A stretch of DNA of 64,000 bases from Nocardioides sp. (GTDB lineage: Bacteria; Actinomycetota; Actinomycetes; Propionibacteriales; Nocardioidaceae), in contig NZ_JAWKJQ010000006.1 of NCBI RefSeq assembly GCF_041393715.1, positions 76,680 to 140,679 of the forward strand, given 5' to 3'. The notes beneath the pieces are model-generated. The model was not told where the DNA came from and ran no database searches. It worked only from the letters and a program-made list of their open reading frames with translations. The first letter of the stretch is position 1. Each line of letters starts with the position of its first letter. Of the stretch, positions 37,930 through 43,010 are shown one piece after another. A program made the position numbers and the translations under genes.

Positions 37930-38074
37930 CGCACCTCCTCCGGTCGGGTCCGATGATCGCACGCGGACCGCGGCGGAGGGACCCGCGAGGACCGGTCCCG
38001 GGCCGCTCGGGGGAAGCGGCTCCGGGACCGGCGACCGGGACGGCTCGAGGAGCGTGCTCCGGTCGGCACCCGCG

Positions 38075-38893
38075 TCAGCAGTTCACCGCCAGCTCGACGT
38101 TGCAGGCGTCGTTGCCGGGGCCGCCGTAGGCCCGGTCGAAGCCCTGGTTGCCGCGCAGCCGGTCGGCGCCTGCGTGGCCGAACAGCCGGTCGTCGCCCGC
38201 GCCACCGAAGGCACGGTCGTCGCCCGCCCCGCCGTAGACGTAGTCATCCCCGGTGCCACCGTCGAGCCGGTCGGCCGCGCCGTCGCCGAAGAGCTGGTCG
38301 TCGTCTCCGTCGCCGTAGACCTCGTCCCGGCCGCCGTCGCCGTGCAGGTAGTCCTCGCCGGTCGAGCCGCGCAGCCGGTCGTCTCCCGGGCCGCCGTTGA
38401 CCAGGTCGTTGCCGTCGCTGCCGTCGAGCACGTCGCGGTCCGCGCCGCCCCACAGCTTGTCGTCTCCGTCGTTGCCCTGGAGCCGGTCGTTGCCCTTGTC
38501 GCCGAAGAGCTCGTCGTCGCCCCGGTTGCCCTGCACGACGTCGTCGCCCTCGTCGCCGTGGACCGTGTCGTTGCCCGCGTTGCCCTGCAGCCGGTCATCG
38601 CCCTTGCCGCCGAGGATGGTGTCGTCACAGGCACCGCCGGTCACCACGTCGTCGCCGTTGCCGGCGTAGATGATGTCGTGACCGCCGCCGCCGTCGATGG
38701 TGTCGTTGCCCCCGCGCCCGTAGATGATGTCGTTGTACGGCGTCCCGACGAGGTTGTTGTTGGCGCTGTTGCCGAAGATCACCTGCCCGGGCGTGGTGCA
38801 GTCGGGCGGCAGGGCGCTCGCCGTCGCCGGCCCGAACGAGACGCTGGCGAAGCCGGCCCCCAGCAGGGCCGCGAGTGTGATCGGGAACTTCAT
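38075..38893 (-). CDS. Secreted protein with RTX/hemolysin-type Ca-binding repeats
   Basis: Sec signal peptide followed by many GGxGxDxLx nonapeptides. Confidence 0.88.
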   Translation of the reverse strand: MKFPITLAALLGAGFASVSFGPATASALPPDCTTPGQVIFGNSANNNLVGTPYNDIIYGRGGNDTIDGGGGHDIIYAGNGDDVVTGGACDDTILGGKGDDRLQGNAGNDTVHGDEGDDVVQGNRGDDELFGDKGNDRLQGNDGDDKLWGGADRDVLDGSDGNDLVNGGPGDDRLRGSTGEDYLHGDGGRDEVYGDGDDDQLFGDGAADRLDGGTGDDYVYGGAGDDRAFGGAGDDRLFGHAGADRLRGNQGFDRAYGGPGNDACNVELAVNC

Positions 38894-39015
38894 GATGGTG
38901 CTCCTTACGGTTGGTCGCCGGCGGTTGCCGGCGCGGAGCAGTCAGGACACCGGCGGCACCTCAGCGTGGGATCAGAAAGCCGGAGCGGAGCCCCGACGGA
39001 CCGGCCACGAGCGGC

Positions 39016-39048
39016 GCTAAGCCGGCGCTAAGAGGTGGGCTCGATGGT
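39016..39048 (+). promoter_or_regulatory. SARP-type operator/promoter 4
   Basis: GCTAAGC-N4-GCTAAGA-N9-GATGGT. Confidence 0.72.
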
Positions 39049-39096
39049 TGCCGCAAGGCACCCGGAGAGGACCGGGTCCGACCCAAGGAGAAGCCC

Positions 39097-39714
39097 ATGA
39101 ACACCACCGCCGGCACCGCAGCCGCCGTCCTCGCAACCACCCGGACCCACCGGGCCGCCGCCGCCCGGATCATCGCCGTGTTCGCGGCCGTGGTGTCGTC
39201 GCTGCTGATGACGCTGTTCGCCGCGACCCCGGCCGAGGCAGCCACCACCGTCGGCGCCGCCGGGCGGATCGGCAGCATCACCCTCAACGGGCCGATGATC
39301 AACGGCTACGACGTCGGCCAGCGGCTGGCGAACGGCACCTACTTCTACTCCAAGAACTGGAACGTCGGCGGCTTCACCGTCACCCGGAGCCCCTCGTCGT
39401 ACCGGCAGCGGGTCACGGGGAAGTCGACGATCCAGAAGTGGAACGGAGCCCGGTGGGTCGACATCCAGTCACGCACCTGGTCGGGCACCGTGGCCGGCAC
39501 CGGCACCCTCCGCTTCCCCGGGTGGACCTACTCGCCGACCAACGTCCCCAACAACCGCGCGTCGTACCGCGTGAACTTCCTGATCACCTGGACCAACACC
39601 GCCAACGGCCAGTTGGTCGCCCTCACCGGCGTGCTGCCCAACAAGTACTCCGACAACCGCTGCGCGACCACGTTCTTCACCTGCCGGACCTACACCGACG
39701 GCATCAACTTCTGA
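39097..39714 (+). CDS. Hypothetical secreted protein (paralog-like to 17672..18226)
   Basis: Signal peptide ending AEA; KWNGARW segment, C-terminal Cys pair; AAGGAG RBS. Confidence 0.78.
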   Translation: MNTTAGTAAAVLATTRTHRAAAARIIAVFAAVVSSLLMTLFAATPAEAATTVGAAGRIGSITLNGPMINGYDVGQRLANGTYFYSKNWNVGGFTVTRSPSSYRQRVTGKSTIQKWNGARWVDIQSRTWSGTVAGTGTLRFPGWTYSPTNVPNNRASYRVNFLITWTNTANGQLVALTGVLPNKYSDNRCATTFFTCRTYTDGINF

Positions 39715-39789
39715 GGCCCGACCCGTCGCCCTCGGCCCGCCCTCCCGGGGTGGTTCGAGGGCGCTGGTCGTGTGCCGACATCCCGCGGT

Positions 39790-40851
39790 TCAGGCGCACA
39801 GCTCACGCAGGATGTCGGCCACCCGCGAGGGGTCCAGCCGGCAGGTGGCGCGGCCCACCGGCAGCTCGCAGCGGACCACGCCGGGGTCGCCGGTGGGCAT
39901 GGGTGCCTGCCAGACCCAGATCCCGTCCTCGTCGGCCAGCCGCCGCGCGTTGGCCCTGAACCTCTCCTCGGAGACGCGGAACAGCAGGTGCATCATCGGC
40001 GTCTGCGGTGGGTCGGGCAGCACCCGGACGACCTGGCTGCCCGCGAGCTGCGCCGCGATGGCGCGGGCCTGCTCGAGCCGTGCCGGCATCTCGGACAGGC
40101 GCTCCGACAGCAGGCCCAGCGCGGACGCGGCCGCCGGCCACATCGCGAACAGCGAGCCGCCGAGACGCCCTCGCCACTCGCGGACCTGGTCGACGATCTG
40201 CGGCGGGCCCACCACGCAGCAGCCCGGCAGGGCGCCGATGCCCTTGTAGAACGAGACGTAGGCGGTGTCGAACAGCGAGGCGATCTCGGCGGGCGAGCGC
40301 TGGTAGCCCGCCGACGCCTCCCAGAGGCGGGCTCCGTCGAGGTGCACCGCCGCGCCCCGCTCGCGCACCGCGTCGACCTGGCCCACGAGGTCGTCCCAGT
40401 CGGGCAGCTGGCCGCCGAGATCTCGCTGGGGAAGCTCCCAGAGCACCGCCGCGACGGGCTCGGGCACCTCGAGGTCGGTGCGGGTGAGCAGACGGTGGGG
40501 CTCTCCCACGGGCCGCCCGGTCAGGCCGTGGACGCGGGAGTAGGCCTCGCCCTCGTGCACGGCGAGGTGGCACAGCGGGTGCCAGAGCACGGTGCGCGTC
40601 CCGCGGTCATCGGCGTGCACCCGCAGGGTGGCCGCCTGGGCCATCGTCCCGCTGGGCAGGAAGACCGCCGCGGGATGACCGAGCAGCTCGCTCACGGTCG
40701 ACTCCAGCTCGGCGACCACACCGCCCTCGCCGTAGACATCTGGAACCACGTCGCCCCCCACGGAGGCGAGAACCTCCTCGGGGGTGACCAGACCGTCGCC
40801 GATGACGAACGTGTGGCACCTGCTCCGCCGGGCCAGGTCCTCCGCATCCAC
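39790..40851 (-). CDS. Low-specificity threonine aldolase-family PLP enzyme
   Basis: AVFLPSGTMAQ, VHLDGARLW, YVSFYKG (PLP lysine); TAGACT 7 nt before GTG. Confidence 0.87.
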   Translation of the reverse strand: MDAEDLARRSRCHTFVIGDGLVTPEEVLASVGGDVVPDVYGEGGVVAELESTVSELLGHPAAVFLPSGTMAQAATLRVHADDRGTRTVLWHPLCHLAVHEGEAYSRVHGLTGRPVGEPHRLLTRTDLEVPEPVAAVLWELPQRDLGGQLPDWDDLVGQVDAVRERGAAVHLDGARLWEASAGYQRSPAEIASLFDTAYVSFYKGIGALPGCCVVGPPQIVDQVREWRGRLGGSLFAMWPAAASALGLLSERLSEMPARLEQARAIAAQLAGSQVVRVLPDPPQTPMMHLLFRVSEERFRANARRLADEDGIWVWQAPMPTGDPGVVRCELPVGRATCRLDPSRVADILRELCA

Positions 40852-40908
40852 CCGGCGAAGTCTAGGGAGCGTTCGCCGCGGACCCCGGCCCGACAACTCG
40901 GAGCACGG

Positions 40909-40938
40909 TGGAGCCGCCTGTCGTGGAGCCGCCTGTCG
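40909..40938. repeat. Tandem 15-bp duplication of the tRNA-Thr 3' end (att-like)
   Basis: TGGAGCCGCCTGTCG at 40909-40923 and 40924-40938. Confidence 0.85.
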
Positions 40939-40999
40939 GAATCGAACCGACGACCTAATCATTACGAGTGATTCGCTCTACCGACTGAGCTAAGGCGGC
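40924..40999 (-). tRNA. tRNA-Thr (CGT)
   Basis: GCCGCCTTAGCTCAGTCGGTAGAGCG...CTCGTAA...GGTTCGATTCC...GGCGGCTCCA; 76 nt with encoded CCA. Confidence 0.97.
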
Positions 41000-41269
41000 C
41001 TGCTGCCCGGCACGGCTCCCGGCGTGACCGCGGGCCGTCGACCGGGCAACCGCAGCAGGATAACGGACCGGGTGGCGGGGTGCGAAAACGCCCGGCGGCG
41101 GCTCTCGGTGACCCCTTGGGCAACCCGGCATGGCCCACGTGGGCTAGACGTCCACGTCGTTCGGAGGAGCAGATTCGCCGGTTCCCTCCCGCGATCCGAT
41201 GGGGCAGACTACGGTCGGCAGCGTCAACAAGTGAGGCAAACACGTTTGGCAACTCGGGAGAAGAACCAC

Positions 41270-41878
41270 ATGATGCCAGTTCTCGGGACCCCCATCCCCC
41301 GACAGGTGTCCTTCGTTGGACCCTTCGGCGTGGGGAAGACCACGGCTGTCTGCACGGTGTCGGACACCAACGTGTCCTCCACCGAGGTGTTGAGCTCCGC
41401 CCTGCGCGCGCGCACCGGCCGCCCCGGCCGGCACCTCAAGACGACCACCACCGTCGGCTTGGAGATCGGCGAGTGGCAGTCACCGGACGGACAGACAGTC
41501 TCCGTGGTCGGTACTCCGGGGCAAGAGCGCTTCGACCTGGTGCGGAAGTCGGCCATGCCGCGCAGCACCGGGGTCGTGCTCTGGCTCTTCGGCCACCATG
41601 ACCTGGCCCTGCTCGACACCGAGCTGTGGCTGGAGTTCATCGCTGCGGAGGTCTCGACCTCCAAGCTCACCGTGGCCGTGACACGGTTGGAGGAGGCGGG
41701 CACCCAGCTCGACGGCTTCCGGGAGGTGGTCGCCGCGTGCGACGACCGGATCCCGGTGATCGCCGCCGACCCGCGTGACCGCAACTCCGTTGTCGAGGTG
41801 CTGCACACCGCCTTGCGGATTCCCCACAGCAGCCCCGCCACGGAGAAGCCCGCCACCGAGAAGGAGGCCGTCGGATGA
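41270..41878 (+). CDS. Small GTPase, MglA/CvnD-like
   Basis: G1 GPFGVGKT, switch I TTTVGLEIG, G3 GTPGQERF; G4 position reads TRLE. Confidence 0.85.
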   Translation: MMPVLGTPIPRQVSFVGPFGVGKTTAVCTVSDTNVSSTEVLSSALRARTGRPGRHLKTTTTVGLEIGEWQSPDGQTVSVVGTPGQERFDLVRKSAMPRSTGVVLWLFGHHDLALLDTELWLEFIAAEVSTSKLTVAVTRLEEAGTQLDGFREVVAACDDRIPVIAADPRDRNSVVEVLHTALRIPHSSPATEKPATEKEAVG

Positions 41879-42462
41879 AGACCCAGACCCGCACCGCTGC
41901 CGCGCTGGCCGAAAGGCTTGAGGAGGCAGACGTGGCAGACACCGTCGAGGAGCACCACGCCGAGATCGTGGTGCTGCCCCCGCGCAACCCGCAGGGTGAC
42001 GACCAGCCGAGACCCCCGCTCGGGGTCGAGATGGACGACGACATCGCCGCCCACTGGGGTCTGTGGTCCGAACAGATCGGGCGCGCGCTGCTGCCCACCC
42101 TGCAGACGCTCGCGGAGTCCCTGCCGGCGTTCAGCTCGGCGATGATCTGCACCGCCGACGGCTTCAACCTGTGCACCATCGGCGTCGACGAGACGCAGGT
42201 CAGCCGCCTCTCGGCGATGACCAGCTCGCTGCACTCGATCGCCGACGCCGTGTCCAGCTCGGTCCACGACGAGGAGGGCGGCCCGCTGGACATGGTCACC
42301 CTCACCAACGGCTCGTCCAAGACGGTGGTGCTCGCCGTGCGTCACCTCATCGTCGGCCAGCTGCTGCTGTGGGTGACCGTGGGCGAGGACTCCCTCGGCG
42401 CCCTGCTGATGCGCGCCAAGGTCGCCGCCGACTCGATCCGCACCAAGCTCGGCGACGACTGA
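41875..42462 (+). CDS. Roadblock/LC7 (MglB-like) protein with N-terminal extension
   Basis: AMICTADGFNL, RLSAMTSSL, LGALL; ATGA overlap with the GTPase. Confidence 0.82.
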   Translation: MKTQTRTAAALAERLEEADVADTVEEHHAEIVVLPPRNPQGDDQPRPPLGVEMDDDIAAHWGLWSEQIGRALLPTLQTLAESLPAFSSAMICTADGFNLCTIGVDETQVSRLSAMTSSLHSIADAVSSSVHDEEGGPLDMVTLTNGSSKTVVLAVRHLIVGQLLLWVTVGEDSLGALLMRAKVAADSIRTKLGDD

Positions 42463-42535
42463 GCCCACCCCGCCGGCGTACGCCGCCCCCGACAACCACG
42501 AGATTCCCCAACCCTTCCCGAGAGGACACCCCACC

Positions 42536-42925
42536 ATGTTGGACATCGACGTCAATCTGCTCGAGCAGACCGTCAAGGAGGCGAAGGAGACCCTCCGCGA
42601 CGGCCTGGTCGCCACCGACATCTGGGACCGTGAGACCGGCCTCAGCCTCGCCGGCTTCAACCCGCAGCCCGAGGCGGTCGCGCTGTTCAACCAGCTCACC
42701 AACGAGATGGCCTCCACCCTGGCTGGCTCAAACTTCCCGGGCCTGAACCGCTACTTCCTGCTCGACCTCGACGGCGGCAACACCGTGGTGTGCCAGAAGC
42801 ACGGCGACGACCTGATGTCGGGCATGCTGCTCGACGCGGCGAAGGTCAACCTGGGCATCCTGGTGAGCATCGTGATCCCGAAGTACGCCGCCGGCGTGGC
42901 CGCTGCGCGCAACCAGCACCACTGA
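42536..42925 (+). CDS. Small protein, possible second Roadblock/longin-like fold
   Basis: 129 aa; helix-strand pattern and C-terminal NLGIL resemble Roadblock proteins (by eye). Confidence 0.6.
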   Translation: MLDIDVNLLEQTVKEAKETLRDGLVATDIWDRETGLSLAGFNPQPEAVALFNQLTNEMASTLAGSNFPGLNRYFLLDLDGGNTVVCQKHGDDLMSGMLLDAAKVNLGILVSIVIPKYAAGVAAARNQHH

Positions 42926-42956: not shown

Positions 42957-42987
42957 CGAGGGCCGGTCCCCCTCGGGGCCGGCCCTC
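42957..42987. terminator. Hairpin between convergent genes
   Basis: CGAGGGCCGGTCCC-CTC-GGGGCCGGCCCTCG. Confidence 0.6.
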
Positions 42988-43010
42988 GGTCGTCGCCTCG
43001 CCTCGCGGCG

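Follow-up and report, generated by a model that had tools for sequence, protein, structure and literature searches.

The locus at positions 41270–42925 of the DNA analysed here, a small GTPase gene followed by two Roadblock-type genes, raises the question of what such a trio does and to which known system it belongs. The DNA is a 64-kb stretch, referred to as the window, from a high-G+C soil actinobacterium (73% G+C) whose closest relatives are metagenome-assembled genomes (MAGs) of Nocardioides and other Nocardioidaceae. We consider it probable that the three genes form one operon for a self-contained, kinase-less GTPase switch of the MglA family, nearest to its Group 3, with a heteromeric regulator made of two Roadblock proteins. 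The reading that we grade best is likewise the one proposed in a first-pass annotation of the sequence, a switch that stands alone and has two different Roadblocks as partners. The genes are the following:

41270–41878, plus strand: small GTPase gene, 202 amino acids, MglA family, nearest to Group 3
41875–42462, plus strand: gene for Roadblock 1 (the middle protein), 195 amino acids, MglB-like Roadblock/LC7
42536–42925, plus strand: third-protein gene, 129 amino acids, cryptic protein of predicted Roadblock fold

All three genes are co-oriented. The ATG of Roadblock 1 overlaps the stop codon of the GTPase gene as ATGA, while a gap of 73 nt, holding a GAGAGGA ribosome-binding site, separates Roadblock 1 from the third gene. 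The same genes occur in the same order in 17 further actinobacterial loci at 15 distinct places, and the ratio of nonsynonymous to synonymous substitution rates (dN/dS) lies between 0.10 and 0.46 across all three, over-extended starts of the open reading frames (ORFs) in this estimate inflating dN. Because of the recurrent order and these ratios the trio is not a chance arrangement; it is inherited together under purifying selection. The features first noted for the unit, its position beside a tRNA-Thr gene, a TRLE sequence in the G4 motif of the GTPase, about 65 acidic residues on the middle protein and a third protein of 129 residues, are all present.

The GTPase, with 202 residues and an intact P-loop, stays within the size of a single-domain Ras-superfamily protein (≤240 residues). 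Its motifs read GPFGVGKTT (G1), KTTTTVG (G2; K57-T-T-T-T61-V-G), GTPGQERF (G3; G81-T-P-G-Q85), AVTRLE (G4; T138-R139-L140-E141) and ADPRD (G5; D167-P168-R169). In an alignment of 31 relatives T138, R139, D167, P168 and R169 are invariant and the columns of G2 and G3 are invariant or nearly so. Curated sequence models gave sub-threshold matches only (Roc, Ras, ATP_bind_1 and small_GTP). An AlphaFold model based on the 31 relatives has a predicted local distance difference test score (pLDDT) of 86, and its best Foldseek matches are Rab, Ras, Rap and Rho, with a probability of 1.0. The protein has a Ras fold with an intact P-loop, the switch-I threonine and the catalytic glutamine of GTPGQ. An intrinsic arginine finger is lacking, the residues in G2 being TT and not RT. 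In MglA Groups 2–5 a threonine replaces the intrinsic arginine of G2 and G3 reads GTPGQ (PMC4316618), and both features are found here. Groups 2 and 3 have in addition a deviating G4 without lysine and a G5 of the "DAR" or D-x-R type, DAR being proposed to contact guanine (PMC4316618). AVTRLE, which is without the lysine of NKxD, and ADPRD, which is of the D-x-R type, agree with what is expected of Group 3. Group 1 does not fit: no arginine finger is found in G2, and G3 is GTPGQ instead of TVPGQ.

Roadblock 1 consists of a Roadblock core that begins at about residue 70, as placed by profile alignment to PDB entry 9jue, and of an acidic, variable N-terminal extension (residues 1–65, net charge −9). 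The extension ends in a clade-specific motif, EMDxDIAAxWxLWSEQIGRAL, that is kept in every actinobacterial middle protein sampled. The Pfam model Robl_LC7 (PF03259) scores the window protein below threshold (17 bits against a cutoff of 23) and matches 18 of the 26 members of its family, with a best E-value of 2e-6. The family profile matches solved Roadblock structures, first 9jue (3e-6), then 3kye, 7f8m and the CvnB5 structure 3leq. The protein also carries an invariant D95-G96 pair, and an Asp-Gly pair has been singled out in the MglB partners of Groups 2–5 (PMC4316618). By these signatures Roadblock 1 is predicted to be an MglB-type Roadblock with the Asp-Gly pair.

The third protein had been called Roadblock-like with the least certainty. 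The protein and 34 relatives gave no match in Pfam (Robl_LC7 at E ≤ 0.1 included) and none in NCBIfam or PADLOC. Compared with the PDB by sequence, the family returned only spurious matches to retron PtuA (E = 0.025), which we rejected. The AlphaFold model (pLDDT 87, predicted template modelling score 0.81) has the alpha-beta-beta-alpha-beta-beta-beta-alpha topology of a Roadblock. Its top Foldseek matches are all Roadblock, MglB or LAMTOR proteins, led by the Asgard Roadblock3 9jue and by MglB (6izw, 3t12, 6hjm and 1j3w), with template modelling (TM) scores of 0.75–0.84 and a probability of 1.0; C-terminal domains of Rag proteins are also among the fold matches. On MglB the model superposes with a TM score of 0.75–0.78. 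The third protein is thus predicted to be a second, very divergent Roadblock fold, and the earlier call stands. A profile comparison of its family with that of the middle protein was not significant (hhalign probability 0.3%). With 22 invariant columns across phyla and 52–58% identity between the window protein and its Myxococcota relatives, the family is the best conserved part of the system. In the source annotations sampled its members are largely left as hypothetical protein because current Pfam and NCBIfam models miss them. We regard this cryptic Roadblock family as the most interesting part of the system.

Relatives of all three proteins co-occur in Burkholderiales, Rhodocyclales, a few Alphaproteobacteria and Nocardioidaceae. 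This survey of taxonomic distribution and neighbourhoods, which the first-pass annotation had suggested, revealed that the genes stay linked across phyla in orders that differ by lineage:

Most Burkholderiales: third protein, DUF (a gene for a domain of unknown function), GTPase, Roadblock
Leptothrix type: DUF, GTPase, Roadblock, third protein
Acidocella and two proteobacterial MAGs: third protein, GTPase, Roadblock (no DUF)
All 17 further actinobacterial loci (15 distinct places): GTPase, Roadblock, third protein (no DUF)

An iterated profile of the DUF protein detects it in 21 loci of the proteobacterial type, or 19 after removal of a duplicate Leptothrix contig (L003) and a truncated one (L041). 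This profile had no match in the PDB, and winged-helix Pfam models were touched by one of its 19 members. Around the 22 proteobacterial loci and the non-syntenic actinobacterial copies we found no additional conserved neighbour that might serve as an output; the cellular output is therefore not encoded nearby.

Kinase-less systems of one GTPase and two Roadblocks are already catalogued as "MglA Group 3", a class that the first-pass annotation had not taken into account. Such systems comprise a DUF protein, an MglA homologue and one or two MglB homologues, mainly in beta- and gamma-Proteobacteria, the DUF protein being predicted to have a receiver-like N-terminus and a winged-helix C-terminus; in the 2014 table Frankia EuI1c is the one actinobacterium listed under Group 3 (PMC4316618). 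Several comparisons place the trio closer to these systems than to the conservons. The GTPase family profile scores 103 bits against the Group 3 GTPase of Comamonas and 60 bits against Streptomyces CvnD, and that of the middle protein 40 bits against the Comamonas Group 3 MglB and 18 bits against Streptomyces CvnB. Pairwise E-values of the GTPase are 4e-23 (Comamonas) versus 6e-12 (CvnD), and in tblastn searches of plasmids 8e-18 for Comamonas versus 3e-9 or weaker among the listed Streptomyces conservon matches. The G5 of the Comamonas GTPase is also ADPRD. In Leptothrix cholodnii the operon encodes a 269-residue protein without a Pfam match (the DUF), a 207-residue GTPase, a 173-residue Roadblock and a 125-residue third protein. 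Table S2 of the 2014 survey has a Group 3 row for Lcho_2393 with the neighbourhood "DUF>MglA>" and the length 207 (PMC4316618), to which we matched the locus by protein length and the DUF gene upstream, not by locus tag. Since the 207-residue homologue fits this row, the closest proteobacterial relatives are already classed as Group 3; both Roadblock genes at the Leptothrix locus were overlooked in the 2014 table because they are too divergent. In Group 3, coupled MglB genes, one or two, lie within four genes of the GTPase, and here two genes of Roadblock fold follow immediately downstream.

By contrast, the order GTPase-Roadblock-Roadblock is not that of a conservon, and G4 reads TRLE where conservon GTPases have NxFD (NLFD in the Streptomyces CvnD reference, NEFD in MfpB). 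The window holds no homologue of the Streptomyces CvnA kinase, of CvnC (DUF742) or of the Group 3 DUF. The view that the unit is not a conservon is borne out by its different order, the missing kinase and DUF742 genes and the better scores against Group 3 than against the Streptomyces conservon. The trio comes nearest to a trimmed, minimal actinobacterial form of Group 3 MglA, and is neither a broken conservon nor a new kind of system. We file it as a variant of Group 3 rather than as a plain member because the DUF gene is missing.

How might such a switch work? In our proposal Roadblock 1 and the third protein would assemble into a heteromeric platform, either as a heterodimer like LAMTOR2/3 or as stacked dimers like MglB/MglC. 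The platform would bind the GTP form of the GTPase across its switch regions, position Gln85 and speed up hydrolysis, the role of a GTPase-activating protein (GAP) being the main one; it might also control nucleotide exchange or localisation. A heterodimer of the two Roadblocks is putative, and what points to it is the constant pairing of the third protein with a second Roadblock. In proteobacterial relatives the fourth protein, the Group 3 DUF, would be a likely input or output. The Nocardioidaceae would have lost the DUF gene or never had it, and the acidic tail of Roadblock 1 with its conserved Trp-rich motif may have taken over partner docking or autoregulation.

For the trio, heteromer formation, GAP activity and the use of GTP are inferred by analogy with better known systems. 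Ragulator contains the Roadblock heterodimers LAMTOR2/3 and LAMTOR4/5. An MglB dimer binds one MglA-GTP, and the resulting 2:1 MglB:MglA complex is asymmetric. MglB acts as a GAP, and MglC, a homodimeric Roadblock, binds MglB dimers to form stacked Roadblock dimers which are broken apart by MglA-GTP as MglC is displaced (PMC10329633). MfpD is a probable GAP for the conservon GTPase MfpB, which has no arginine finger (PMC13015309), and Group 3 loci of Snodgrassella with two coupled mglB genes matter in vivo (PMC11112851).

The idea that the tail replaces the fourth protein is suggested by two coincidences: the actinobacterial clade without the DUF gene is the clade with the conserved N-terminal motif, and DUF-less MAGs carry an acidic, Trp-rich extension. 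We considered whether the tail could be a fused remnant of the Group 3 DUF and rejected this (hhalign probability 0.04%). The extension in question is found on the Roadblock 1 homologue of two DUF-less proteobacterial MAGs (L039:9117-10526 and L045:8897-10522), is about 330 residues long and consists of acidic, Trp-containing repeats (AEAWGARHEAVASEPAWPDVAAEAP...), a parallel to the acidic tail with its Trp motif in actinobacteria.

Several points weigh against the proposed switch or its placement. The DUF expected of Group 3 is absent, according to the iterated profile, from the 64-kb window and from every actinobacterial locus. The assignment to Group 3 draws on profile scores, shared context and a table row matched by length and context, and not on a five-group reference tree. 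The third protein is without sequence similarity to the canonical Group 3 MglB-2. Its partner in Polyangiaceae is a ParA/MinD ATPase, which means that the third protein may be no GTPase regulator as such. Lastly, the aspartate of G4 is a glutamate here and is missing in some relatives, and guanine specificity is therefore not guaranteed.

The pairing in Polyangiaceae comes from a conserved five-gene cassette which the third-protein family closes in 35 Polyangiaceae and Sandaracinaceae loci (L040-L082; e.g. L047:4945-8372, or L058:4950-8372 in Sorangium cellulosum So ce56). Its order is a tetratricopeptide repeat (TPR) protein, a DUF4388/PATAN protein, a ParA/MinD-type ATPase (AAA_31/CbiA), a Roadblock-like protein and the third protein, with no small GTPase. 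The PATAN gene, DUF4388 being what we take to be the Pfam model covering PATAN domains, is present in 34 of the 35 cassettes, and its product has no significant relation to the Group 3 DUF. The Roadblock-like protein has 185 residues and a weak match to LAMTOR5. In every cassette of the GTPase type and in every myxobacterial cassette examined, whichever nucleoside triphosphatase (NTPase) is present, the third-protein family adjoins a second Roadblock gene; the exceptions to this pairing are the divergent copies in L081 and L083-L085. A longer, divergent third-protein paralogue of 188 residues stands alone in two proteobacterial MAGs (L083:328-894 and L084:7995-8561), with no GTPase or second Roadblock nearby, and both MAGs also hold a full cassette.

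It is conceivable, and we put it forward tentatively, that the third protein represents an unrecognised and unusually conserved Roadblock-fold family that supplies a shared platform subunit to NTPase switches of two unrelated classes, those built on MglA-type GTPases (Nocardioidaceae and beta-Proteobacteria) and those built on ParA/MinD-type ATPases (Polyangiaceae), and that is paired each time with a second, lineage-specific Roadblock. If so, the family would be a bacterial counterpart of Ragulator's layered Roadblock platforms, and the Nocardioidaceae trio would be the platform's minimal form, with the acidic Trp-motif tail on its partner Roadblock standing in for the fourth protein.

The same family bears on the division of labour between the two Roadblocks. 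In the main alternative to a joint platform, a homodimer of Roadblock 1 could be the GAP and the third protein a separate homodimeric adaptor, much as with MglB and MglC. The adaptor would dock on Roadblock 1 or on another partner, be released by the GTP-bound GTPase and link the switch to a target. This would agree with the high conservation of the third-protein family, both in its invariant columns and in its identity to the Myxococcota relatives, with its use beside an ATPase in the 35 cassettes that have no GTPase, and with the precedent of MglC, a homodimer on MglB that MglA-GTP displaces (PMC10329633). Sequence comparison, however, detects no relation of the third protein to MglC or any MglB, and we judge such a division of labour to be rather unlikely.

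For the self-contained GTPase switch that we favour, the G4 motif deserves closer attention, since TRLE had been taken as a sign of altered nucleotide preference. A search of 1.8 billion proteins with the GTPase yielded 37 clusters at E ≤ 1e-30 and 528 at E ≤ 1e-10, from which the 150 best representatives were aligned. In most of them G4 is [A/G]-[V/I]-T-[R/H/K]-x-[D/E], for example GVTRMD, GITRTD or GVTHMD, and in several close relatives the fourth position of TRLE is A, P, G or another residue. TRLE is best read as a relaxed TKxD (Lys to Arg, Asp to Glu) and not as a new motif; being one state of T-[R/H/K]-x-[D/E], it does not indicate a changed nucleotide preference. The protein could still be an NTPase of changed base specificity (for ATP, XTP or none), its G4 having neither the lysine nor the aspartate of NKxD. 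TRLE itself, the close relatives without an acidic fourth residue and weak N-terminal matches to PF03029 (ATP_bind_1) would speak for this. But the 150 representatives display a conservative version of TKxD, and the invariant D167-P-R169 fits the DAR motif, which in Groups 2 and 3 and in MfpB is proposed as a guanine contact. Deviating G4 motifs are known in Groups 2 and 3, and CvnD9, a Group 2 protein with such a G4, was experimentally shown to be a GTPase (PMC4316618). A change of specificity is accordingly improbable in our opinion, and the earlier suggestion is not supported.

Outside the coding sequences the module is bounded by the following features:

40924–40999, minus strand: tRNA-Thr(CGT), found with ARAGORN, 270 nt upstream of the GTPase gene; a landmark outside the module
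41210–41260, plus strand: conserved 5′ region, from an alignment of 10 upstream regions
42957–42988, no strand: G+C-rich hairpin with a 14-bp stem, from RNA folding, between the convergent ends of the operon and a hydrolase gene

The conserved 5′ region begins with a −10-like TACGGT (41210–41215), about 55 nt upstream of the GTPase gene, whose T-A-n-n-G-T positions are invariant or nearly so in the 10 aligned regions, and ends with a GGGAG ribosome-binding site (41256–41260) 9 nt before the GTPase ATG. The CTCGGGAG block at this site is invariant among the 10 related loci. The upstream TAnnGT element may be part of a promoter, to judge from its conservation. We disregarded the sole sigma-70-like match found, which overlaps the start codon and is at odds with the conserved ribosome-binding site. 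At the other end, the terminator hairpin described earlier is present as a hairpin, a stretch of 91 nt around it folding at −52.5 kcal/mol (z = −3.3). A scan for consensus terminators called none at this position, and the U tract is absent. The hairpin is a probable terminator of the kind without a U tract, its function being deduced from structure and position.

The proximity of the tRNA gene bears on the history of the module in its host. In the 11 Nocardioidaceae loci with a tRNA the order is tRNA-Thr(CGT), module, alpha/beta-hydrolase-holB-tmk, the distance from tRNA to GTPase being about 230–300 nt in 9 of the 11 and about 1.4 kb in L012 and L014. GTPase identity among these syntenic loci goes down to about 68%. 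The G+C content at third codon positions (GC3) of the trio is 0.90–0.95, compared to 0.96–0.97 in the neighbours, and its total G+C 0.66–0.70, compared to a window mean of 0.73. The GTPases of actinobacteria group in a single clade (100% support), which sits on a long branch (length 1.3). When the tree of the third protein is rooted on the myxobacterial clade, the sequences from actinobacteria fall inside the beta-proteobacterial ones (98/94 support); monophyly of the proteobacterial sequences is not rejected by an approximately unbiased (AU) test (p = 0.14). Because of synteny, host-like codon usage and purifying selection we conclude that the module is old in its host and is not recent island cargo. 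An ancient transfer from a cassette of the beta-proteobacterial type is possible.

The module is located 5′ of the tRNA, opposite to the side on which tRNA-targeting elements insert. On the far side a 15-nt sequence of the tRNA-Thr 3′ end (TGGAGCCGCCTGTCG, plus strand) is tandemly duplicated at 40909–40938, and beyond the duplication (38000–40900) follow a 390-residue ORF, a 267-residue ORF and an RTX-repeat protein without counterparts in the same flank of the closest relatives. This fits the 3′ side of tRNA-Thr being a variable or integration region. Since the variable genes and the duplication lie on that side, the module is outside the variable, island-like DNA.

That the trio arrived recently by horizontal transfer, carried by an element that integrated at tRNA-Thr, is thus very improbable, notwithstanding the adjoining tRNA with its tandemly duplicated 3′ end, the total G+C slightly below the window mean and the nesting of the actinobacterial third proteins inside beta-proteobacterial ones. 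Against it stand the location on the tRNA 5′ side with the variable DNA on the other, the 11 syntenic loci with GTPases as divergent as they are, a GC3 near that of the neighbours, the single actinobacterial GTPase clade on its long branch and the outcome of the AU test. Nor did we see, among close relatives, any with an empty tRNA-Thr/hydrolase junction and flanking attL/attR repeats. A possible horizontal acquisition had been raised at first and was overstated, given the synteny in Nocardioidaceae, the host-like GC3 and the position 5′ of the tRNA; any transfer would be ancient.

In some Nocardioidaceae MAGs the trio is present twice: besides the copy at the tRNA-Thr/holB site there is one at another place, among unrelated genes (QM714_11545 and QM714_16540; U0R80_14670 and U0R80_19465; proteins P0151/P0155 and P0153/P0163; loci L015 and L018-L021).

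The notion that the trio is what decay has left of an ordinary actinobacterial conservon (kinase, Roadblock, DUF742, GTPase) deserves next to no credence and is already effectively refuted, for although the host is actinobacterial and CvnD and CvnB are detectable homologues of its GTPase and Roadblock (60 and 18 bits), the scores against Group 3 are much better, the gene order is reversed, G4 is not NxFD, no remnant of a kinase or of DUF742 is found in the window, the same trio exists in Proteobacteria, mostly with the DUF as a fourth gene, and the relatives have it intact and under purifying selection in the 17 further actinobacterial loci (15 distinct places).

The kinase-less switch of Group 3 type that we propose can be set against its known counterparts. 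It has in common with Group 3 MglA the absence of a kinase, one GTPase with two Roadblock genes and the same type of G2–G5 motifs. It differs in that the DUF gene is missing from the window and from all Nocardioidaceae loci, that its second Roadblock lacks sequence similarity to canonical MglB-2, that Roadblock 1 has an acidic N-terminal extension and that the host is actinobacterial. A close parallel is the mgl locus of Snodgrassella, also Group 3, with mglA, two coupled mglB genes and one orphan mglB (PMC11112851), which shares the architecture of a GTPase with two Roadblocks; in contrast to the trio it is a canonical Group 3 locus with recognisable MglB paralogues in a proteobacterial host. 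Its phenotype is gut colonisation, and it is the only Group 3 system for which we found in vivo phenotypes (PMC11112851). With the conservons (CvnA-D, Mfp; Group 2) the trio shares the phylum, a homologous GTPase and Roadblock, the missing arginine finger and a D-x-R G5, yet it has no sensor kinase or DUF742, the opposite gene order, TRLE instead of NxFD, an extra Roadblock and clearly lower scores. The MglA/MglB(/MglC, RomY) polarity systems of Myxococcus xanthus and Thermus thermophilus (Group 1) likewise place a Ras-like GTPase under Roadblock control and include a second Roadblock paralogue, MglC. Group 1, however, is marked by an intrinsic arginine finger, by TVPGQ in G3 and by a canonical NKxD; the trio shows none of the three and is without a link to motility genes. 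Rag-Ragulator resembles it in using non-identical Roadblocks as a GTPase platform, and the fold matches of the third protein include LAMTOR and the C-terminal domains of Rag. This likeness is an analogy only, as there is no sequence relation and the GTPase of the trio carries no fused Roadblock domain.

Our understanding of conservons or of MglA/MglB is unchanged by the trio. Kinase-less Group 3 switches are widespread, and we found one in vivo study and no published biochemistry on them. Among the loci examined the trio is the smallest complete version, consisting of one GTPase and two unlike Roadblocks and lacking a fourth gene, and it is well suited to reconstitution. It could reveal by what means Roadblock proteins turn off a GTPase that has no arginine finger, and also whether the asymmetry of the 2:1 MglB:MglA complex becomes fixed when the two Roadblocks differ.

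Three further observations arose from the survey of related loci. On the 373-kb plasmid NZ_CP083452.1 of Comamonas odontotermitis the canonical Group 3 operon consists of a hypothetical protein (the DUF), the GTPase, the Roadblock and a 119-residue "hypothetical protein" (L088:5030-5389). The last has no sequence similarity to the third protein of the window and is probably an unannotated second MglB. One contig with a Leptothrix-type cassette (L035) is titled "Candidatus Intricatilinea gracilis" (Chloroflexota), while its lineage places it in Sphaerotilaceae. In the pair L019/L020 a contig with the label Microthrixaceae shows no difference over the module from a Nocardioides contig that the same study produced. 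Both records look mis-binned or mislabelled.

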